Assembly: GCA_000092065.1 (NCBI GenBank)
Contig: CP000593.1
Strand: one strand, 5' to 3'
DNA from: Ostreococcus lucimarinus
Lineage: Eukaryota
Length of the DNA: 64,000 nt
The notes beneath the pieces were generated by a model that worked only from the letters and a program-made list of their open reading frames with translations, made no database searches and was not told where the DNA came from. Below are positions 4,836 to 63,144 of the stretch, piece after piece (the stretch's first letter is position 1; each line of letters begins with the position of its first letter). The position numbers were made by a program, and so were the translations under genes.

Positions 4836-6590
4836 ATGCGGGACGACGACGCGATGGGCGCGACGCGACTCGCGGACGCGCTCGCGGACGCGGTCGAGGA
4901 CGCGAGCGCGAGAAACGCGGGCGGGGGGGGGGGACGCGCGGGACGCGCGCGCGCGAAGACGAATGGGAAGAGCGCGCGACCGAGGTTGAACGACGCGGGC
5001 GCGCACTTGAGAGTGCTGCTGGCGACGGACGACGCGCACACGCGAAAGATGGTGGAATCGATGCTGCGCGAGCTCGGGGTGGAGGTGGTGGCGGCGACGA
5101 ATGGGAACGAAGTCTTGGACGTCTTGCGGGGGGCGCCGAAGAGCGCGAGGGAGGACACGTCGGTGGATATGATTTTGCTCGACGTGTTGATGCCCGAACT
5201 CGACGGGGAAGTCGAACTGGTGGAGGCGTGTAAGGCGAACGAAACCCTGCGCGGGGTGCCGATCGTCATCATGTCCACCGTGGACGAGCGCAAGGCGTGC
5301 AAGACGCGATTTGAAAATTCGGGCGCCGCCGGTTTCTTGACGAAACCGGTGAACCGCATCGAGTTGAAGGAGAGCTTGGCGCACACGCGGGCGTTAAAAA
5401 GCCACGAAAGTGGTAGCGTTGAAGGTGAGGGTTCGGGTTCGGGGAACTGCATGGATCCAAACGACAACGTCGGCGGGAGCGCAAAGTCGTCGCTCACCAA
5501 GCTCACGAGCAGGGAAAAAGTCGCGGGGGGCTCGGGCGGTGGGCAAAACGATTCGGGGAGCGATAATCAATACAACGAAAAACCGCTCACGAGACGCGCC
5601 GAAGCCGAAGCGATCGATCGATGGGCCAGTCGCGAGGGTGGGTCGGGAGACTGCGGCTCGGGCGGCTCGGGTCAAGGCACGGGAAGCGGTAGCGGCTCCC
5701 ACGAAGGCTCGGGGTCGGGCCAGCGTGATCCAAACGACGGCGAAAAGTTCCGCGGCTTGAGCGTGCAACTCATCAAGGCGCACGGTGGGGCAACGACTAT
5801 GCTCGAACTCTCTTTACCAGAGCACGCGTCTGAGCACGTCGTCGTTCGACGATCAAACTCGCGTTCGGCGTTCAAGGGGTTTCAAAACTACCTTAAGAAC
5901 GAAAACAAGGATACCGCGGTGCAAATGATGAGCGTTGACTTGACGCAGCAGCATCACTCGTTTTATGAAGCGTCTTCCATGATGCCACCGTCAGATTTCG
6001 CCAAATTTTACGGACCGATTATGCCGAAGATGGAAATGCCCGTGCCGCCGCCGATGCCGCCGTACGCCGATATGAACCAATTCTCCGCCGCCGCCGCCGC
6101 CGCCGCCGCGGTGGCGGCGTCTTCGGTCGACGCTTCAGTGATGGATCAATCGTATATGGCGAATCCGTTTTTCAACGTTTTACAAACTGCGGCCGATCAC
6201 ACCCAGCAGACGAGCTCGAGCCAAGCCGCCGAGCATCGCGCCGCGGCGATTCGACGCTTTTTGAAGAAGCGCAAGGAAAGGAACTTCGAAAAGAAAGTTC
6301 TTTACCCTTCGCGACAAAAGCTCTCGGAATCCCGTCCTCGCGTTCGCGGACAGTTCACTCGAAACAACGATGAAACGACGACGACGACGACGACGACTGA
6401 AAACGTCTCAAACGGATCGGACAACAAACCAAAGTCGAACGAAACCAACGCGAGCGAGGCGAACAAGGTCGGCGAAGTCGAAGGCAAGGGAGTGGACGAG
6501 TACGGTCACGGCTCGAACGAAGGTTCGAACGAAGGTTCGAAAGAAGGCTCCCGAAGTTCTTCCGGCGCCGAAGGCGAAGGCTCCAAGTAA
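4836..6590 (+). CDS. TOC1: Pseudo-response regulator: N-terminal receiver-like domain plus C-terminal CCT motif; TOC1-like circadian clock component
   Basis: 584-aa ORF with an ATG at 4836. The receiver-like region is LRVLLATDD...MILLDVLMPELDG...TKPV. The C-terminal CCT motif RAAAIRRFLKKRKERNFEKKVLYPSRQKLSESRPRVRGQFTR is typical of PRR/CO/TOC1 proteins. Gly/Ser-rich repeats and poly-Ala and poly-Thr tracts lie between the two. Confidence 0.85.
   Translation: MRDDDAMGATRLADALADAVEDASARNAGGGGGRAGRARAKTNGKSARPRLNDAGAHLRVLLATDDAHTRKMVESMLRELGVEVVAATNGNEVLDVLRGAPKSAREDTSVDMILLDVLMPELDGEVELVEACKANETLRGVPIVIMSTVDERKACKTRFENSGAAGFLTKPVNRIELKESLAHTRALKSHESGSVEGEGSGSGNCMDPNDNVGGSAKSSLTKLTSREKVAGGSGGGQNDSGSDNQYNEKPLTRRAEAEAIDRWASREGGSGDCGSGGSGQGTGSGSGSHEGSGSGQRDPNDGEKFRGLSVQLIKAHGGATTMLELSLPEHASEHVVVRRSNSRSAFKGFQNYLKNENKDTAVQMMSVDLTQQHHSFYEASSMMPPSDFAKFYGPIMPKMEMPVPPPMPPYADMNQFSAAAAAAAAVAASSVDASVMDQSYMANPFFNVLQTAADHTQQTSSSQAAEHRAAAIRRFLKKRKERNFEKKVLYPSRQKLSESRPRVRGQFTRNNDETTTTTTTTENVSNGSDNKPKSNETNASEANKVGEVEGKGVDEYGHGSNEGSNEGSKEGSRSSSGAEGEGSK
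6085..6108 (+). repeat. (CCG)8 trinucleotide repeat encoding poly-Ala inside the PRR gene
   Basis: The stretch ccgccgccgccgccgccgccgccg translates to AAAAAAAA. Confidence 0.8.
6375..6398 (+). repeat. (ACG)7-8 trinucleotide repeat encoding poly-Thr inside the PRR gene
   Basis: The stretch acgacgacgacgacgacgacgact translates to TTTTTTTT. Confidence 0.8.
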
Positions 6591-55106: not shown

Positions 55107-56333
55107 ATGGCGTCGACGCGCGCGATCGCGGGCGCGGGATCGCGAATCGACGCGAATCGACGCGACGCTCGCGAGCGCGCCGCGCGCGTCGCTCGACCGG
55201 CGACGCGACGCGCGCGCGACGACGACGCGGCGGAATCGGAATCGGTGTCGGAACCGGGGTCGCGCGCGCACGCCGGCCCGCACGACGTCGTCGTGAAGCG
55301 CACGACGCCGCGACCGACGCGCGCGGTGGCGCGCACGGGCGCGGTGGCGACGAAGAGCGCGAAGGCGCACCGAAGGCAGCGCGCGTGGGCGCCGGACGCG
55401 CTGGAGTTTCACGGGCTGGTGCGGGCGCGGCGGGAAGATTTGGGGACGCGCGCGAACGAGGACGAGAGGGAAAGATTCCCGTACGGCGATGGATTCGCGT
55501 TCGCGAGGGCGACGTGCGAGACGGAGACGATGGTGGCGCTCGCGACGGCGATGGTCGGGGAAGAGCGACGCATGCGGCTGGAAAACGTTTTGGAGCATAG
55601 AAGTTTTTCGTTGCTGCCGATTCTAGAGGGCGTCTACGACGTCGGCAATATCTTGGCGGTGTGTCGGACGACGGAGGCGCTGGGGATCGGGTGCGCGTCG
55701 ATCGTGAGCTCGAAGGGGCTGTCGTTCAAGGCGAGCGGGAGGACGTCGGGAGGGGCGCTGAAGTGGCAACACGTGGAGCAGTTTGAGACGTCGGAACGCG
55801 CGCTCAGAGTCGCGAAGGCGAAAGGATACCGCGTTCTTACGACTGAGTTTGACGGCGCGCAGCCGCTGTCGCATTACGATTGGACCGTGCCCACGGCGGT
55901 GGTGTTTGGGAACGAGCGCGAGGGGGTTTCGGACGAGGCGCGAGCGCTGCGGGATGGCGCCGTGTACATTCCGATGTTTGGCTTCACCGAGTCTTTGAAC
56001 ATTTCCGTCGCCGCCGCGCTCGTGATGTCGCACGCCGTGACGGACCGGATCAACCGCCGAGGGTTTCACGGCGATTTGACTGAGGAAGAAAAACGTATTT
56101 TGCGCGGCGTGTACATGTCTAGGTTGATACCGAACTACGCAAAGCAAGGATATCTCGAAGAACTCGTCGAGCGTCATAGAAAGGGTCAAAAGCTCGCGGT
56201 GACGGACGACATCGATGTGAGCGAGGAAACACTCGACGAAATTGAATTGTTGACCGAACTGGACGCGGCCAAGTTGGTCGGTAGGCGCAAGCCGAAACGA
56301 GACCTGGGATGGGACGAGCACCTGGACGGTTGA
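55107..56333 (+). CDS. SpoU/TrmH-family RNA 2'-O-ribose methyltransferase (rRNA Gm methyltransferase MRM1-like)
   Basis: The SPOUT blocks are FSLLPILEGVYDVGNILAVCRTTEALGIG, TAVVFGNEREGVSDEA and IPMFGFTESLNISVAAALVM. The Arg/Ala-rich N-terminus may be a presequence. TGTAA lies about 33 nt after the stop. Confidence 0.8.
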   Translation: MASTRAIAGAGSRIDANRRDARERAARVARPATRRARDDDAAESESVSEPGSRAHAGPHDVVVKRTTPRPTRAVARTGAVATKSAKAHRRQRAWAPDALEFHGLVRARREDLGTRANEDERERFPYGDGFAFARATCETETMVALATAMVGEERRMRLENVLEHRSFSLLPILEGVYDVGNILAVCRTTEALGIGCASIVSSKGLSFKASGRTSGGALKWQHVEQFETSERALRVAKAKGYRVLTTEFDGAQPLSHYDWTVPTAVVFGNEREGVSDEARALRDGAVYIPMFGFTESLNISVAAALVMSHAVTDRINRRGFHGDLTEEEKRILRGVYMSRLIPNYAKQGYLEELVERHRKGQKLAVTDDIDVSEETLDEIELLTELDAAKLVGRRKPKRDLGWDEHLDG

Positions 56334-56381: not shown

Positions 56382-58244
56382 CTACTTTCGTCTTCTGCTG
56401 CGACTAGAGGTACTTTTATTAGCAGGCGGAGTCGGCTCCACCGTTTTTCGTTTCTTCTTGTTGTCCGCGACTTCCGGTTCTGGTTTAGCGGGCGGCTTCG
56501 CTTCTTCTTCCGTCTTTGGCGGCTCCGGAGCTTCTTCAGCCGGCGGAGGCGCGGCTCGCTCCGGCGCTTTGTCCGTGTCCTTCGGCGCTGGACGGAACGG
56601 AACGTACGGAATACCTTGCGCCGCGCAGCACTCTGGGCAGGCAAACTTGACGTTTTCGGCGTTTTCGTCTTCCTCGCCCGGCGCCGGCGACTGCATGCCG
56701 ATGCACTCGTAATGAAACCAACCATCGCATCGATCGCAGCAAATCATCGGCCTGAGAGCGTCGTACGCGCTTCGGCAAACGCAATACAGTTCGCATCGCT
56801 CTCCCAACTCCTCGAGCTCCTCCTTCAAGTATAAAGGCAAAGATCGACCCTCTTGAAGCAGCAACTGCGCCGCCTCGATAGGAATCGTTTTGTCTTGCAC
56901 GACGGCGGCGGCGCGTTCGAGCCAGATTTGTCCAGCAACCTCCAACGCGTGCGCGCGATCGGCCAAAGGATCAATGCCGGCACCAGGGCAAAGACCAGCA
57001 GCCATGGCAGATTCCTTGAGCTCGTGAAGCTTGATCAACCTCGGGAACGGCGCACCAGTCATGAGCCGCGTGGCTTGTTCTCTCCACGCCGGACCGCACA
57101 CTTCGCGCATCAACGCGAGCGTCTCCTCAACAGGTTCCAGCTCCATCGCCAGAGCACCCTTCATGCCCGCGTACACTTGCAGCGCTGGATCGACATTATC
57201 TTTTCGAGGAATGTCATACGTGTAATCCATCTCTTGCTTGGGCATTCCAGACGCGTCGCCGACAAGCGATGGCATGGCCGGTTGCAACATGAACTGCTGC
57301 GGAACCATCATCGGTTCGTTCGTCTTCAACTGAGCAGACATATCGCTTGGACTACCATGACCCGTGGATGTTGAAGGTTCTTTGCCGGTGTCTTGCGCCG
57401 TCGGCGGCGGCATCATGCCAGACATTCCAGATAGTTGCAGAGTCGCTTCCATGAGCCAGTTGCTAGCGCCAACATTTGCCAGCTCTTCCTCGTGCTCGTT
57501 TGTCATCTTTAGATGCTGTTGCTGCATCATCAAGACGTGGAGGATGTGGGGCCTAGACCGAACTGGAGCCATGTGAATTTGAGCTTGGCACATCGCGAGT
57601 TGCATGGCGAGCTGTTGAAGTTGCCCGAGCTGCTTTGTGACGACATCTGAAATCTCCTGCGAACACGGCGAAATGTTCAACGCGTGCGTGCGCTGCGTTG
57701 CGGCGAACGTGACAGCTTGACCCATCAGCATGACTTGCTGTAATGGCGTGAGAGAAGCTGGAGGATTGGGGTTCTCTGCAGTCGCCGCGAGCGACGCTTC
57801 GGCGATTCGTCGTGTGCGTTCCTCAGATTCTCTCATCGCTGCTTCTTGGGCAATCTTCGAAGCTTGACTGATGGCGTTGTCGTGTGCTTCCTTCATACTC
57901 TTTCTATGCAAAGTCTTTCGTACTTCCAATCGCCACGCGTCGTGAGTATTGATGACTTGATTCAACACGGCTTCTTCTGGCACTTCTCCAGGAAATCGCT
58001 GCGCTTCACCGAGGAGTTCTCGCAAAAGCATGACGTTTGGGCGATTGGTGCGATGCACCGAGCGATACGTATCCAACGAGAGTGCGCTCGCCTTGCCACT
58101 CTTCGCGATGCATGGCGGACAGATGTAATTGTGCATCGTCTTTGCCATAGTAGGCGTCACATTGATACATTTTAAGTGATACCAGTCACCGCAATCATCA
58201 CATCCAACCATTTGAATTCCTCCAGCTTGTCGACAAAGGCAGAA
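56382..58244 (-). CDS. In-frame continuation of the JARID/KDM5-like reading frame downstream of a TAG: PHD finger at the extreme N-terminus, Q/M-rich low-complexity middle, second PHD finger and a basic tail
   Basis: This is the same frame as ORF 58245-61904. Immediately after the TAG (58245-58247) the frame encodes FCLCRQAGGIQMVGCDDCGDWYHLKCINVTPTMAKTMHNYICPPC, a complete C4HC3 PHD finger of the YCICRQ…CDxCxxWFHxxC type. The ORF-track ORF starts only at the internal Met 58211, which would leave the finger without its first Cys pair. A second PHD is LYCVCRSAYDALRPMICCDRCDGWFHYECIG…KFACPECC. Whether this is translated as part of the upstream protein is unresolved. Confidence 0.5.
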   Translation of the reverse strand, partial: FCLCRQAGGIQMVGCDDCGDWYHLKCINVTPTMAKTMHNYICPPCIAKSGKASALSLDTYRSVHRTNRPNVMLLRELLGEAQRFPGEVPEEAVLNQVINTHDAWRLEVRKTLHRKSMKEAHDNAISQASKIAQEAAMRESEERTRRIAEASLAATAENPNPPASLTPLQQVMLMGQAVTFAATQRTHALNISPCSQEISDVVTKQLGQLQQLAMQLAMCQAQIHMAPVRSRPHILHVLMMQQQHLKMTNEHEEELANVGASNWLMEATLQLSGMSGMMPPPTAQDTGKEPSTSTGHGSPSDMSAQLKTNEPMMVPQQFMLQPAMPSLVGDASGMPKQEMDYTYDIPRKDNVDPALQVYAGMKGALAMELEPVEETLALMREVCGPAWREQATRLMTGAPFPRLIKLHELKESAMAAGLCPGAGIDPLADRAHALEVAGQIWLERAAAVVQDKTIPIEAAQLLLQEGRSLPLYLKEELEELGERCELYCVCRSAYDALRPMICCDRCDGWFHYECIGMQSPAPGEEDENAENVKFACPECCAAQGIPYVPFRPAPKDTDKAPERAAPPPAEEAPEPPKTEEEAKPPAKPEPEVADNKKKRKTVEPTPPANKSTSSRSRRRK

Positions 58245-58247
58245 CTA

Positions 58248-61200
58248 ACCCTCCTCCGTCTCCGGCGGTTCGCCAGTCCCGGTGATGTCTTCCACACCAG
58301 CTTTGATGGAATCAAGAACATTGCTCAACATTTCGATAAGCGTTTTTTCTTGTTTGACTTCACCCTGATCGTTTGCCCAGAGCAACGCGTTGAGCCTCTC
58401 CGTCCACGCCGTGGCGGCGTTGCACGCATTTGTGAGCGCTTGTCTCTCTGAGCACTTGAAGGTCAAATCTTCCACCTCCGCTAGAAGATCGTATAATTCG
58501 TCAATCGAAGGGCGAGATCGACCTTCAGCGACACTGTTCAAGCACTTACGAACGGTGTCGACCCACTGTGCGTGATCCGCCAACGACGCCTCGAGGTCTT
58601 CTACCTTCGAGACGTCAGCGGGAAGTGCCTTGCCTTCGGCGATGAGGGCGTCTATTTCCTCCGGTGATGCACTCGGAGCCAATCGACCGTCTTCAAGGAG
58701 AGGAGGATCGAGCAAACGATCCGCTTTCTTGCGCCATTCGTCCACAATCGTGTACCGTTTCATGATTTCAGCGACAAGATCCTCTTTCAAGTCTTGAAGC
58801 ACGTCGATTTCTTCCCTGAGCTCGTCCAAAACGGTGTCCTCGACGAGCTTCGCCTTGGGTGCAATGATCTTAGCGACGCGTTCTTCCCACTTGAGCGACT
58901 TTAAACGAATGCGAACTGTCTCCATGGCTGGTAATTCTAATCCAAAGTCTTCGTGCGAAAGTTCAAGCTCGGTCAACGTCACCTCGGCGCCGTCTTCTCG
59001 CCAGCGCTCGATGGCGTCCTTCGCGTCCACGTCCCACTCTTCTGCGGCTTCGACGCGTTCTTCCAAAGCTTCAACTTCCTTGACAAACAATTTCAAGTTC
59101 GAAGACTCTTTCATGAGCTCTTGCGCCTCGGAAAGCGGCGGAATCGGATTTGACACACCGCGACGAGTGAGCTGCTTTCCCTTCAAACAAGGTTGTGCAC
59201 GATCCAACCAAGACTTGGCTACATTGACCGCTTCTGAAAGCACGTCGAATCCATTCAGAAAGATTGGAATCGAGCTTCCTTCGCGGATGAGCGACGCGGC
59301 GTCTTCGAGTGACGGTCGGTCCTTACTATCGAGAGATTTGAGCATCACCGCCGCGCGCTCGTTCCACTTCTTCGCCGCGTTGATGTGGCTCTCGCACTGC
59401 GCCAGCAGCGCTTCTTCATCTGGGGCAACCTCTTTATCTTCGGAGTCGAGGAACTCGTTACCCGCCCGCACGGCCGCTTCGACTTCGGCGAGCGGATATT
59501 TCTTCGATGAAACCATGTCCTTCAATTTCTCTGCCAGCTCCCGGACGACGATACGGTTTCGCAACCACTCGACTTCGTCCACTCGCACGCTAAACTTTTC
59601 ACCCTCGACGAGAAGCATGTGCAAATCCGTCACTCTTGCTCCCGGATAATCACTCGCTCGAGCATGATCGGCCCACACTTTGACAGCTTTGATTTGATCG
59701 GCTAGTCTGTCGACCTCGTCGAGTTTTGTTGACAACGCCATGCCCTCCTTGAGAAGCGCCTCGGCTTCTTCCACGTCAACCTTGGCGACGAACAGCGACT
59801 CAGACTTTGCGCGCCAAAAATTCAACTCTTCTAAAGATTTGCGCAAAGTCAAGAGTTCGCTCTGCTGAACGGGTAATCCATGCGCCTCTTCGTATAACGC
59901 CTCGATCTCTCGAGCATTCGCTAGTTCCTCGCGCGGCGGGAGTTGTCGTCGTCCTGGAAGCGCGCCGCGCACCTTCGTGGACCACGCGCCTGCTCTAACG
60001 ATGACGTCCTTCAGCTTTTTATATGAAGGGACTTCCACACCAAACTTATTCGCTTCAGTTTGAAGCGTCGTACAAGCGCGAGGAGATGGATTCGGTACCT
60101 CGGCGAGAGCCGCCTTGATGCGTTCCTCCAATTTCAAGCCCGCCGCGAGCAAATCGCGGAAAGGTTGAGTATCAGCCTTAGGCATCGGTACCGGTGGGTT
60201 GTCAAGGAGCTCTTTTAGTCTGTTCAATCTCAATCGCGCTTCACCAGCGTCATCGTGCGCGGCCTCGGCACCAGCACTGGATCCAAGCCTTTGCTTCAGC
60301 GCCACAAGACTCGTCTGCCACGCGACGGCGTTCGTCACGCGAGTGTACGCTTCTCGAGCCGCCTTCATATCAGCACCACCCCAAATAAACTCTTCACCCG
60401 CAGCGAGTAAATTTCTCATCTTGTCCAGCGGCGGCAAAGGTGGTTTGACGAGCTCTTCGCCCACTCGTTTCACCCAAGCCTGAGCCTTCTTGACGAGATT
60501 CTTGTTCACTGTGACTGAGTCCAAGTCGCTGTGCTTGGATTTTAAGCTGGCTAGTTCCTTCTGAGAAAGCGCCTTCTCCGTCTTCTTCACCAGACTTTCT
60601 AAATCAGCCACTGTTTCTCTGTAAAACATCGTCTTCTTCGACATCGCACATTTGCACAAGTCGTTGACGTGTCGCAAGCACGCCTTGCGCGTCTCGTCGC
60701 ACGAGCACCCGACGCCAGACGAGTACAAAATGTGTCGACAAACAACGCACTCATCGGATCCAGAGTTCGATGCATCGTCAAACCTAGATCGTACTTTACG
60801 AGGCTTTTCGCAGCCATCGTCGTCGTCGTCGTCGTCTGCTGACGTCATTTGCGCGCTGCGCGTCACGCCAGACGCGAAAAGCTCGGCGCGACCGTTTGCC
60901 TCTTCAGCGTACAAGCGCGCAATCTCGGGCCACAAGTGCGGCGCTATGCTCGAACTAGGATTGTTTGCTACTCTGCAAACCAACTCGTCGTGACTAAACA
61001 ATGAACGCTTGGCGTACGATCGGTTTCTCTCCACGCTCGCCGAGCCCTCTGGGAGCCAGTCAGCGGGCACAAAGTTGACGCTCTCCGTGCAGTTCAATCC
61101 ACAGTTGAACGACGCGTAGTACGCCCCGGGATACGTCACCACGTATTCTCCTGGGAATTGCTCCAACGTGTGCACGGGCACTCCCGCGCTCATCAAGAAG

Positions 61201-61911
61201 CTCGGCGAGAGCATCGTAAAGACGCTTCCCAAATCGTTGACGTGCGCCTCGTAGACGTCGGGCATCACCTTCTGGAAGCATTCTTCCAACTTGTCCGCTG
61301 CACTCGCCGGCACGCAGTACCACAGTTTCGCGGCACCCCAGTGATTGTAAGTGATACTGTACATGTTATGCTCTTCTCGACGCCAAGTCGTGGAACTAAA
61401 CGTGCTTCCGACTTCTAAGAATGGCGTCGTCACGCCCGCCACGTCATCCTTCAACGCGCCCAGTAGCGACGACTTTTCCCCACTCGCGCGCGCGACGTTG
61501 TTGAGATTCCATTTCGACTCTGACCAGCGCTTGATAGATTCCGGGCTCACGCCGTCAATCTTTACCTGAAGCGCTTCGCCGTGTCTCGGGAACCCGCTTC
61601 CGTACTTTGTCGTGTCAATCGCCGTGCCGCATTTGACCTCGCAAACATCATCCACCGAGCTCGCATCTTCAACCATTCGCCAGAAACACTCCTCAATCAC
61701 CTGCATATCGATCCCAGTTCGCTTGGCGTCCTCGCCAAAGAACGCCGTATCAAATTCTATGCACGCCTCGTTGAAATCGCCGAGCGTAAACTGCGTCCCT
61801 TCATCCGCGCTCAATCGCTCCACCTCCGCGTCAATCTCTTCGCATCGTCCACAAAACCACTCTCCACTCGGCACTTCAGTCATCTTCGGCGTTAAGCAGT
61901 ACATATGTGAC
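58248..61911 (-). CDS. JARID/KDM5-architecture protein, main exon: second half of PHD1, JmjC domain with both Fe(II)-ligand histidines substituted, C5HC2 zinc finger, long PLU-1-like helical region
   Basis: The JmjC core is TTWRREEHNMYSITYNHWGAAKLWYCVP…FPGEYVVTYPGAYYASFNCGLNCTESVNF, compared with KDM5A [28 protein letters not shown]…[27 protein letters not shown] as recalled (His to Arg and His to Tyr at the two His ligands, Glu retained). The C5HC2 is CVVCRHILYSSGVGCSCDE…CLRHVNDLCKC. The frame ends at TAG 58245-58247. Confidence 0.75.
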
Positions 61912-62119
61912 CTACGCGCGCATCATTCGTCAGTCTCGTCGCTCCTTCGCGGCTCCTTCTCCCCCGCGCGCCTCTAAACCCCACGTCTAACCGTCGCCCA
62001 CGCGCGCGTTCGCCGCGCCCTCGCGCGCCGCGCGAGCGCTCTCTCTCCCCGAACGCGCGTCCGAACGATCGAGATAATTTTCACGCGCGCGTTCTCGCGT
62101 GGCATTGTCGTATACGCAC
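61912..62119 (-). other. Spliceosomal intron (208 nt, GTGCGT…GCGTAG) splitting PHD finger 1 of the JARID/KDM5-like gene
   Basis: The upstream exon ends …CDVCGASGNEDAMILCDGCDRG (gg|gtgcgt). The downstream exon begins G|SHMYCLTP…EWFCGRC. Joined they give CDVC-x11-CDGC-DRGS-H-MY-C-x15-C-x2-C, a canonical PHD. The branch-point-like GAGACTGACGAA lies about 20 nt before the AG. The unspliced upstream frame hits a stop at 61987. Confidence 0.7.
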
Positions 62120-63144
62120 CCTCGATCGCACCCATCGCACAGGATCATCGCGTCTTCGTTCCCGCTCGCGCCGCACACGTCGCAGTCGGCGTCGCCCTCG
62201 GGCGCGTCCGCGAGCTGCGAGGCGACGAGATCGAGGCCCTGCGTCGCGAAAACACGCGCCGTAAAAGTCAGTCGCACGTCATCGCGACGCCCATCATCGC
62301 GCGCGCGCGTCGCACGCGCCGCGAACGCGTGCGATTCGCCGTCATCCCGGTCCCGCGCGAAGAAGATATGGCACGAATTACGCACATTTTCCACCTTGAC
62401 TCGCCGTTCGGGCGCGCCCGACGCCCCAAATTCGAGCCCACACAGCGCATCGATCGCCAGCGCGTCATCTTGTTCGATCTCTCCCTTCACCGCGTCGAAC
62501 TGCGCGCTCTTCACCGCGTCTTCTCTTCGCTTGGCGTCGCGCGCGAACGCCTCCAGCCACGCCCCGTGCAGCGCTCTCGCCGCGTGTCCCGCCGCGCATC
62601 CGCGTCCGTGCGCCCCGATCGCCTCCGCGACCTCGCGCCAGCCTTGATTTCCATCGATCGCGTCCGCGCCACCGCGTCTTTTCACCTCCTCGTACAGCGC
62701 GCGCAGGTCGAAGCGCCATCCTCGCACTCGATGGATGCGCCAACTCGCCCCTCGCGGCGCGCGTTCGTCCGGTCGCGACGCCCTGTGTCGCTCGTATTCG
62801 TCCCTGAACGGCACGCGCATGTCGACGGACGCGTCTCGCGCGCACGCCCCGAGCGCGCGGACCGGCTGCGTGCGCGCGGTGAACGACCACGCGCGCAAAT
62901 CGAGGGCGAACGCGCCGCGGTCGCGATGGCGGAGACCTCGCGCGTCGTCGTCGTCGTCGTCGTGCGCGATCGTGAGCTTGCCGATGCCGCACGCGCGGGC
63001 GTCGACGGCGGCGAGATCATCGAGGGCGTCGACGACGCCGGCCTCCGGGCGCGCGGACGCGCACGGCGCGCGCGACGGGGCCCGCATCGACCGCCGTCGC
63101 GAAATGCGGTGCGCGCGCGACGCCCGCGCGAGACGCGCTCGCAC
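62120..63144 (-). CDS. JARID/KDM5-like gene, upstream exon: ARID domain and first half of PHD1; 5' end and start codon unresolved
   Basis: The ARID-like block is RFDLRALYEEVKRRGGADAIDGNQGWREVAEAIG…ALHGAWLEAF. This is followed by DADCDVCGASGNEDAMILCDGCDRG. The N-terminal about 100 codons of the ORF are Arg/Ala-rich and may be non-coding. No clear JmjN was found; further 5' exons cannot be excluded. Confidence 0.55.

Follow-up and report, generated by a model that had tools for sequence, protein, structure and literature searches.

The window, a stretch of 64,000 nucleotides of Ostreococcus lucimarinus CCE9901 (contig CP000593.1), carries on its minus strand a two-exon gene with the domain composition of the KDM5/JARID1 histone demethylases. 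Its features are as follows.

62120..63087, minus strand: exon 1, with the ATG at 63087 (from open reading frame and splice-site reading)
62545-62730, minus strand: ARID domain in exon 1 (Pfam E=1.5e-06)
61842..62184, minus strand: PHD1, spanning the intron (Pfam PHD, E=1.1e-12)
61912..62119, minus strand: intron of 208 nt, GT..AG, interrupting PHD1 between CDGCDRG and SHMYCL
58248..61911, minus strand: exon 2, running from its splice acceptor (61911) to the codon that precedes the premature TAG
61629..61631, minus strand: Cys codon at the position of KDM5A Tyr409 (2OG contact)
61071..61418, minus strand: JmjC domain (PF02373, Pfam E=2.8e-31), with a substituted cofactor site
61380..61382, minus strand: Arg codon at the position of KDM5A H483 (first Fe(II)-binding His)
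61350..61352, minus strand: Thr codon at the position of KDM5A Asn493 (2OG contact)
61116..61118, minus strand: Tyr codon at the position of KDM5A H571 (second Fe(II)-binding His)
60591..60749, minus strand: C5HC2 zinc finger (Pfam zf-C5HC2, E=5.6e-14; pLDDT >90 in the structural model)
58383..59366, minus strand: best-scoring stretch of PLU-1 (Pfam E=1.3e-61)
58245..58247, minus strand: in-frame TAG, a CAG->TAG change at 58247 private to the CCE9901 reference
56382..58244, minus strand: rest of the ancestral coding region, in frame with exon 2; the ancestral stop codon is 56382-56384
58110..58241, minus strand: PHD2 (Pfam PHD), behind the stop codon in CCE9901
56619..56792, minus strand: PHD3 (PDB matches), behind the stop codon in CCE9901

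The spliced gene gives Pfam matches in the order ARID, PHD1, JmjC, C5HC2, PLU-1, PHD2, and PHD3, in agreement with the KDM5/JARID1 order given in the original prediction. The segment to which that prediction was assigned, 58248-61911, is exactly exon 2, which encodes PHD1 (second half only), the JmjC core, the C-helical domain of KDM5 proteins (KDM5_C-hel, Pfam E=7e-07 in the exon 2 open reading frame), C5HC2, and PLU-1; the ARID domain, half of PHD1, and both PHD2 and PHD3 lie outside it. Exon 1 encodes a degenerate JmjN remnant, ARID, and the first half of PHD1. The intron junction is borne out by P0103, a full-length, MMETSP transcript-derived protein of a sister Ostreococcus species, and the same intron position is found in L006, a Mamiellaceae-like ortholog (this label and the label Bathycoccus-like were assigned by GC content, composition in amino acids, abundance, and position in the tree). 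The high GC content of exon 1 (0.69-0.74, compared with 0.54 elsewhere) was considered as an anomaly and rejected, because GC3 drops in the 5'-to-3' direction across genes of the window generally. Separately, an apparent segmental duplication was observed in O. lucimarinus.

Alignment to KDM5A (5ceh; phmmer, E=1.2e-68) places WRREEH against WHIEDH and AYYASFN against AYHSGFN. It agrees with the predicted change of the facial triad from H-x-E...H to R-x-E...Y, with the Glu (KDM5A E485) retained, and reveals damage to the 2OG pocket as well: the positions of the KDM5A contacts Y409, F480, N493, and K501 read C, T, T, and K, the Lys alone being retained. No alternative conserved His occurs near the triad positions in the alignment, and the adjacent H of WRREEH is itself Q in one Ostreococcus clade. 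Written in the order of KDM5A Y409, F480, H483, E485, N493, K501, and H571, the signature is C-T-R-E-T/S-K-Y in all five Ostreococcus clusters and Y-F-H-E-N/S-K-H in 112 of 120 matches and 134 of the 150 nearest cluster representatives. At the Y409 position of a 22-sequence alignment, Cys is found in all Ostreococcus, Ser in the Bathycoccus-like lineage, and Tyr in all others. The H483 position is Arg in every Ostreococcus cluster (5/5) and His in the Bathycoccus-like and Mamiellaceae-like lineages, as well as in the aligned plant, animal, and fungal homologs. The replacement of the second His by Tyr is not decisive by itself, because Tyr is tolerated there in PHF2, whose structure reportedly still permits metal binding; the argument for inactivity uses both His substitutions in combination with the lost 2OG contacts. 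With the triad and the 2OG contacts replaced and JmjN undetectable, catalysis would not be expected, and, judging from these residues, Fe(II)/2OG binding and demethylation have most likely been lost.

No Pfam match to JmjN at E<=1 was obtained in either O. lucimarinus or P0103; the Mamiellaceae-like ortholog has the domain (E=2.8e-13), and it is also recorded for the Bathycoccus-like ortholog. When the N-termini are aligned, the PVFxPTxEEFxDPLxYI half of JmjN is seen to be replaced and FALDLRAWSFTARTQPVRAL to be kept, the distal FALDL..F.F..R.Q being the only JmjN motif left; the JmjN segment is thus decayed. The AlphaFold2 model of the exon 2 protein has a pLDDT of 82.9 and a pTM of 0.81, and Foldseek matches it to KDM5B/C and JMJ14 (TM 0.72-0.75, E ~1e-35). 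Thus the JmjC core is still predicted to take the KDM5 fold. The best PDB matches of PHD1 are DPF2/3 PHD2, BAZ2A/B, PHD1 of Lid and KDM5A/B, CHD4, and AIRE; PHD2 matches the fingers of CFP1/Spp1, TAF3, ING4, ALFIN-like proteins, and KDM5B PHD3; PHD3 matches the PHD fingers of DIDO1, Pps, PHF2, BPTF, and PHF8 (E ~2e-09), and its LYC..M..W positions are conserved in the alignment. The nearest solved homologs suggest that PHD1 may be of the type that reads H3K4me0 or the H3 N-terminus, and that PHD2 and PHD3 may be of the H3K4me3-reader type.

The substituted triad is common to all five Ostreococcus clades and to 11 environmental contigs of O. lucimarinus, and distant positional orthologs keep both His, so that a strain-specific or sequencing change is not the explanation. 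On the refuting conditions that the original prediction set for itself, the outcome was thus in its favor. Identity of the JmjC domain among the five clades averages 77% (~74% for the whole protein), and reaches 81% in PLU-1 and 94% in PHD2. Estimates of dN/dS are ~0.07-0.08 for the JmjC core between clades and ~0.06 over 1809 codons at the genus level, values that are only approximate and resemble rough upper bounds because dS is saturated (2-3). Among 12 O. lucimarinus sequences, the JmjC region has zero polymorphism; they differ at 22 alignment columns (~18 events) in 7 kb, too few for a within-species pN/pS by domain. The open reading frame is unbroken (1840/1841 aa) in the environmental contigs, and P0103 represents a complete spliced transcript. 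Overall, these data indicate that the gene is held under strong purifying selection across the genus. Since the JmjC core is conserved and models as a KDM5 fold, the protein is a maintained pseudo-enzyme, neither an artefact nor a pseudogene.

The reference allele could be taken to mean that the gene is instead a relic in decay, having become a pseudogene throughout Ostreococcus or, at a minimum, in CCE9901. With the in-frame TAG, the protein ends after 1544 aa instead of 2165, losing 621 residues with PHD2 and PHD3, and all four private coding differences of CCE9901 are non-synonymous (K>R, L>I, one Asp lost, and the stop). All 11 environmental contigs have CAG at the codon in question, and Gln stands there in P0103 and every other Ostreococcus cluster; the TAG allele was found again only in Logan SRR1179203. 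A tiny intron excising the TAG was rejected, as the orthologs and the transcript read through with Gln. Against decay in CCE9901, private differences are about as dense in the gene (4 in 6.7 kb) as in its flanks (5 in 12.1 kb), and residues 1 to 1544 are intact, so that, apart from the stop codon, which alone hints at it, gene-specific decay was rejected. At the genus level, the low dN/dS, the near identity of PHD2, the intact reading frame in the 11 environmental contigs and four other clades, and the complete transcript in a sister species all contradict a relic, and we consider this explanation improbable. The CCE9901 allele itself is probably a partial loss of function, as the truncation precedes PHD2 and PHD3. 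It calls for practical caution: the strain used as the O. lucimarinus reference has a truncating allele not shared by wild populations.

The KDM5A sequence is the best PDB match of the protein, and its best named homologs are plant JMJ17 proteins. In the neighbor-joining tree, it is nested in the green-lineage KDM5/JMJ17 clade, the order of which matches the species tree. Microsynteny is conserved in the orthologs, with NFACT and WD40 genes upstream and a SpoU methylase downstream. The JmjC core is 41-43% identical to plant JMJ17 in Ostreococcus and 52-56% identical in the Mamiellaceae-like orthologs, and the stem lineage of the Ostreococcus protein appears to have been accelerated. The Mamiellaceae-like positional ortholog is fully canonical, and the Bathycoccus-like one retains the triad and JmjN with an already altered 2OG pocket; the triad loss is specific to Ostreococcus. 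This distribution indicates a stepwise erosion, in which the pocket changed first, at the stage seen in the Bathycoccus-like lineage, and the triad and JmjN were lost later, in Ostreococcus. An intact KDM5-type paralog was also looked for: among the matches listed by word-index and exhaustive searches (the latter down to ~200 bits, and none of them a search of a single genome), no second Ostreococcus-like cluster was found; the abundant marine matches that were inspected looked animal or fungal by eye. In the literature, O. lucimarinus is credited with nine JmjC genes and no KDM4, KDM5 not being counted per species.

By these comparisons, the gene is identified as an ortholog of KDM5/JMJ17 and not of JARID2, the animal protein to which it had been likened. 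The likeness holds insofar as both are Jumonji/ARID proteins with a JmjC domain devoid of cofactor-binding residues, and extends neither to descent nor to architecture. Were the likeness functional as well, the protein would be a PRC2 cofactor, recruiting the complex that methylates H3K27 or stimulating it. JARID2 touches PRC2 through its N-terminal region and not through JmjC, as seen in published PRC2-JARID2 structures; this region, which holds the PRC2 and H2AK119ub contacts and includes a PRC2-stimulating segment, an EED-binding methyl-lysine, and a ubiquitin-interaction motif, would have no counterpart in the Ostreococcus protein, the N-terminus of which is a decayed JmjN by alignment. 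JARID2 has the architecture JmjN-ARID-JmjC-C5HC2 and is not known to carry PLU-1 or PHD fingers, whereas PLU-1 and three PHD fingers are present here. JARID2 acts non-enzymatically on chromatin, and its inactivity is noted in the literature (PMC2938197). In favor of such a role, both proteins combine the JmjC domain with ARID and a C5HC2 finger, and a review tabulates PRC2 core subunits as reported from O. lucimarinus (PMC8788455). However, the phmmer score to JARID2 is half of that to KDM5A (120 versus 235 bits), the protein is nested among green-lineage orthologs, whereas JARID2 forms a separate animal branch, and the Ostreococcus loss arose independently and recently, inside Bathycoccaceae. 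Finally, the resemblance of the C-terminal PHD fingers to H3K4me3 readers points to chromatin with active marks rather than to Polycomb chromatin. A PRC2 cofactor is therefore highly improbable.

It could also be supposed that the protein is still an oxygenase, with a non-canonical metal site (e.g., Glu, Tyr, and another ligand) or a different co-substrate. The retention of the triad Glu and of the 2OG-binding Lys (KDM5A K501), the strong conservation of the cofactor pocket within Ostreococcus, and the precedent of PHF2 are in line with this supposition. At the same time, the first His is Arg in all clades, which puts a cationic side chain at the metal position, the equivalents of Y409, N493, and F480 are replaced, and R-x-E...Y is not a site known from any active JmjC enzyme. 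In addition, JmjN, which structurally extends the double-stranded beta-helix core (PMC2938197), is decayed in this protein. We give residual oxygenase activity very little credence. A sequencing, assembly, or alignment artefact was tested and rejected, its probability being negligible: no point in its support was found. Eleven independent metagenome assemblies and an SRA assembly all have an identical JmjC sequence, and four further Ostreococcus clusters, 72-76% identical, carry the same substitutions. Three independent alignment methods concur on these substitutions, and the structural match to KDM5B/C fits them.

A conserved, non-enzymatic chromatin protein, as originally predicted, is the best reading of the sequence. 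We propose, with a probability of roughly 75%, that the single positional KDM5/JARID1 (JMJ17) ortholog of Ostreococcus has been converted to a non-catalytic chromatin protein. In this proposal, ARID would contact DNA, PHD1 would recognize the H3 tail in its unmodified form, H3K4me3 would be the ligand of both PHD2 and PHD3, and the inert JmjC-C5HC2-PLU-1 body could serve as a platform for partner complexes. The role of a reader and scaffold is suggested by the resemblance of the PHD fingers to one H3K4me0 reader and two H3K4me3 readers, and would parallel JARID2, Ecm5, Msc1, and the demethylase-independent roles of KDM5 proteins.

Among known systems, the active H3K4me3/2 demethylases KDM5A-D/JARID1, Lid, and JMJ17 share the ARID-PHD1-JmjC-C5HC2-PLU-1-PHD-PHD architecture and the fold with the Ostreococcus protein, which differs from them by the R-x-E...Y site, the replaced 2OG contacts, and the undetectable JmjN. 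In the JmjC domains of PHF2 and Epe1, Tyr replaces the second His, and both the first His and the acidic ligand are kept. They belong to the KDM7/PHF branch, and share the substitution at the distal ligand with the Ostreococcus protein, which has lost the first His as well. The JmjC domains of the fungal proteins Ecm5 and Msc1 are not known to retain the catalytic residues. These two provide the closest functional analogy, a KDM5-like multi-PHD protein with an inactive JmjC domain, which in Ostreococcus is under selection; they differ in being fungal, in their independent origins, and in having known partners (an HDAC and SWR1). Both are subunits of complexes, Snt2-Ecm5-Rpd3 in S. cerevisiae and the Swr1 complex in S. 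pombe, respectively (PMC2614481). Plant proteins of the PKDM7A type (JMJ14-like), which belong to the KDM5 superfamily of the green lineage, have mutated cofactor residues and are still expressed (PMC2579438). We observed a comparable group (P0477, P0481, P0484, and P0520), in two members of which the first His is K and the last His is Y. These are paralogs existing beside active copies in large plant families, whereas the Ostreococcus protein is the JMJ17-type ortholog itself.

Dead Jumonji proteins are already known in animals, fungi, and plants (JARID2, Ecm5/Msc1, some JMJ14-like proteins). What is new is that the KDM5/JMJ17 ortholog itself appears dead throughout a genus of picoalgae that are ecologically dominant, that this inactivation is old and was followed by continued maintenance of the gene, and that intermediate stages are preserved in sister genera. 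Surveys of JmjC genes in the green lineage that included O. lucimarinus describe the cofactor residues of the KDM5/JARID group as conserved and leave this exception unmentioned (PMC9029850), and automated annotation names the protein 'histone demethylase JARID1'; both could mislead epigenetic inference for these model algae. Since O. tauri is genetically tractable, the protein offers a compact, natural model in which to study what KDM5 does independently of demethylation. A more far-reaching and rather doubtful suggestion is that Ostreococcus has no active KDM5-type H3K4me3 demethylase at all, its sole KDM5/JMJ17 ortholog having been made, step by step, into a reader-only scaffold that purifying selection maintains. 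If true, nature would have performed a separation-of-function experiment in a eukaryote that ranks among the smallest free-living ones, and the non-catalytic role of KDM5 would be the selectively essential one.

The KDM5-like gene occupies three long open reading frames of the same orientation. Its structure, with Pfam matches, is as follows.

Features of the KDM5-like gene (start codon, exon limits and final stop from reading of the junctions)
63144-61987, minus strand: long open reading frame
61904-58245, minus strand: long open reading frame
58211-56382, minus strand: long open reading frame
63087, minus strand: start codon
63087-62120, minus strand: exon 1
62119-61912, minus strand: intron of 208 nt (GT..AG), splitting a PHD finger between CDGCDRG and SHMYCL
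61911, minus strand: start of exon 2
58247-58245, minus strand: in-frame TAG ending the reference-strain reading frame
56384-56382, minus strand: stop reached when the same frame continues past the TAG
Exon 1, minus strand: ARID (E=1.5e-06)
Across the intron, minus strand: PHD1 (E=1.1e-12)
Exon 2, minus strand: JmjC (E=2.8e-31), KDM5 C-helical (E=7e-07), C5HC2 (E=5.6e-14) and PLU-1 (E=1.3e-61)
Past the TAG, minus strand: PHD2 and PHD3 (Pfam scan)

The segment originally singled out, 58248-61911, is precisely exon 2 as far as the TAG. An MMETSP transcript from a sister Ostreococcus yields P0103, a full-length protein of 2096 aa, in which the predicted exon junction is present and Gln stands at the position of the TAG. 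The KDM5-like gene and the divergent WD40 gene lie less than 300 nt apart, which leaves no space for a missed upstream exon. At the 3' end, a convergent SpoU/TrmL-type RNA 2'-O-methyltransferase gene (55107-56333, plus strand) lies so close to the KDM5-like gene that the two stop codons are only about 50 nt apart, a layout kept in all Mamiellophyceae-like contigs examined. GC3 in most genes of the window starts at about 0.8 over the first 200 codons and drops to about 0.6-0.7 further downstream (for example, 62120-63087 vs 56382-61904), and this drop accounts for the alternating GC profile (0.52-0.74). Elsewhere in the window, an open reading frame of 584 aa (4836-6590, plus strand), named pseudo-response regulator 1 / CheY-like by JGI, is probably a TOC1-type clock gene.

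The domain order of the original prediction (ARID, PHD1, JmjC, C5HC2, PLU-1 and PHD fingers) was recovered by Pfam, the last two PHD fingers lying past the TAG. For JmjN, no Pfam match at E<=1 was obtained in either the window protein or P0103. In the N-terminal alignment, the JmjN half PVFxPTxEEFxDPLxYI...GICKIvPP is replaced by unrelated sequence, and the FALDLxxFxFxxRxQ motif downstream of it is still present.

Among PDB sequences, the top phmmer match was KDM5A (5ceh, 235 bits, E=1.2e-68), followed by JMJ14, KDM5C and KDM5B. Residue equivalences were read from the KDM5A alignment after correction of the chain offset (+10).

Cofactor-binding residues of KDM5A and their counterparts in the Ostreococcus protein
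Y409, 2OG contact: C
F480, 2OG contact: T
H483, Fe(II) ligand: R
E485, Fe(II) ligand: E, kept
N493, 2OG contact: T
K501, 2OG contact: K, kept
H571, Fe(II) ligand: Y

Thus the formal alignment upholds the claimed R-x-E...Y in place of H-x-E...H. The initial 448 residues encoded by exon 2 were modeled confidently with AlphaFold2 (pLDDT 82.9, pTM 0.81), and the model has KDM5B, KDM5C, JMJ14 and KDM5A as top Foldseek matches (E ~1e-35, TM 0.72-0.75). As modeled, the JmjC region retains the KDM5 fold, and its cofactor chemistry is predicted to be lost.

By exact protein matches, the window belongs to Ostreococcus lucimarinus CCE9901. Eleven environmental contigs, 99.5-99.9% identical to the window, show zero differences within the JmjC region. 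The signature C-T-R-E-T/S-K-Y, in the order of the residues listed, also occurs in four more clusters (72-76% identical), presumably other Ostreococcus clades. A check for sister strains with both histidines found R and Y instead in all Ostreococcus clusters. Pairwise comparison of the five clades gives mean identities of 77% for JmjC, 81% for PLU-1 and 94% for PHD2, with a whole-protein average of about 74% and poor conservation in the linkers only. Codon-based comparison with the most distant clade yields dN/dS values of about 0.07 for the core and 0.06 overall, which are approximate because dS is saturated. We interpret the altered JmjC site as neither an artefact, nor a strain-specific change, nor decay. 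The reading of this protein as a putative pseudo-enzyme is well supported by the R-x-E...Y triad, the replaced 2OG contacts and the genus-wide conservation.

The order of the losses can be traced in three more distant contig groups, where the genes around the homologues are conserved (NFACT and WD40 upstream, the convergent SpoU-type methyltransferase downstream). In a neighbor-joining tree (1083 columns), the Mamiellaceae-like sequences branch first, then Bathycoccus-like and Ostreococcus together, which matches the expected species relationships; therefore the distant homologues are orthologues.

Catalytic signatures of the orthologues (the labels Mamiellaceae-like and Bathycoccus-like are our inference, not database names)
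Mamiellaceae-like: contig GC 0.60-0.67; Y-F-H-E-N-K-H; JmjN detected
Bathycoccus-like: contig GC 0.51; S-T-H-E-T-K-H; JmjN on record
Ostreococcus: contig GC –; C-T-R-E-T/S-K-Y; JmjN not detected

The Bathycoccus-like orthologue (contigs L020, 176-7672, and L021, 153-7535; proteins P0535 and P0533) is intronless and abundant in Tara samples. It retains JmjN and the H-x-E...H triad, with three 2OG-pocket residues replaced (Y to S, F to T, N to T) and QVD in place of GFN after the second histidine; it could represent an intermediate stage or, alternatively, an enzyme with an altered cofactor. Since the 2OG-pocket changes are found in this lineage too, they are older than the Bathycoccus/Ostreococcus split; the losses of metal ligands and of JmjN are Ostreococcus-specific. 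Identity to plant JMJ17 is 41-43% for the Ostreococcus core and 52-56% for the Mamiellaceae-like orthologues, consistent with a burst of change followed by stasis.

Of 120 further homologues, 112 carry the canonical signature, in which N493 may be matched by either N or S; C-T-R-type signatures among the 120 were confined to Ostreococcus fragments. When 1.84 billion cluster representatives were searched exhaustively with HMMER, the 150 nearest clusters included 134 with the canonical signature. About 10 of these 150 show independent losses of triad residues outside Ostreococcus, including a plant JMJ14-like group whose first His is replaced by Lys; thus loss of catalysis recurs in the KDM5 family. 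Ecm5 and Msc1 are further cases. This recurrent loss is paralleled by JARID2 (PMC2938197) and plant PKDM7A (PMC2579438), and the Ecm5 and Msc1 complexes have been described (PMC2614481). Among KDM5-like representatives with independent losses (P0401, P0408, P0463, P0475, P0493, P0477/P0481/P0484/P0520), the first His is changed to Q, G, R or K and the last to R, T or Y. A green-lineage JmjC survey that included O. lucimarinus reported the KDM5/JARID cofactor residues as highly conserved, leaving the Ostreococcus exception unmentioned (PMC9029850); JGI annotates the protein as 'histone demethylase JARID1'.

The reference strain carries an additional change. The TAG at 58245-58247 (minus strand) is CAG in 11/11 environmental O. 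lucimarinus sequences; the truncated ORF of 1219 aa is on record in a single contig (Logan SRR1179203, which matches the window at 100% identity across 7 kb), and an ORF of 1840/1841 aa in more than 60 contigs. The reference-strain product is therefore 1544 aa long, without both H3K4me3-type PHD fingers (PHD2 and PHD3). General decay of the gene in this strain was rejected, private differences being no denser than in the flanks, and we read the TAG as a single strain-specific lesion. An acidic run at ~60817-60836 is one Asp shorter in the reference strain (7 Asp) than in all environmental contigs (8 Asp), and two environmental contigs have a coding 3-nt deletion at 59940-59942. Four genes within ~1,100-56,300 each have two GenBank/RefSeq accessions, from two contigs, for one identical protein (ABO99253/ABP01293, ABO99255/ABP01291, ABO99262/ABP01284, ABO99272/ABP01274), so at least 55 kb appears to be present twice in the CCE9901 assembly.

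The proposed analogy with JARID2 as a PRC2 cofactor holds for the shared loss of catalysis; the rest is unsupported, as nothing specific to PRC2 was found and JARID2 scored only 120 bits in the phmmer search against 235 for KDM5A. The PHD fingers resemble readers of the H3 tail: PHD1 is closest to readers of the unmodified H3 N-terminus (DPF2/3, BAZ2A/B, PHD1 of KDM5A/B and Lid, CHD4, AIRE), PHD2 to the H3K4me3 readers CFP1/Spp1, TAF3, ING4 and ALFIN-like, and PHD3, with the Tyr/Met/Trp cage positions retained, to DIDO1, PHF2, BPTF and PHF8. This suggests that the ARID and PHD fingers would dock on H3K4-methylated promoter chromatin whose mark the protein could not erase, and that the inert JmjC-C5HC2-PLU-1 body may serve as a platform for partner proteins. 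Overall, the main value of this gene lies in its clean stepwise trajectory and in the possibility of a genus without H3K4me3 demethylation by KDM5.
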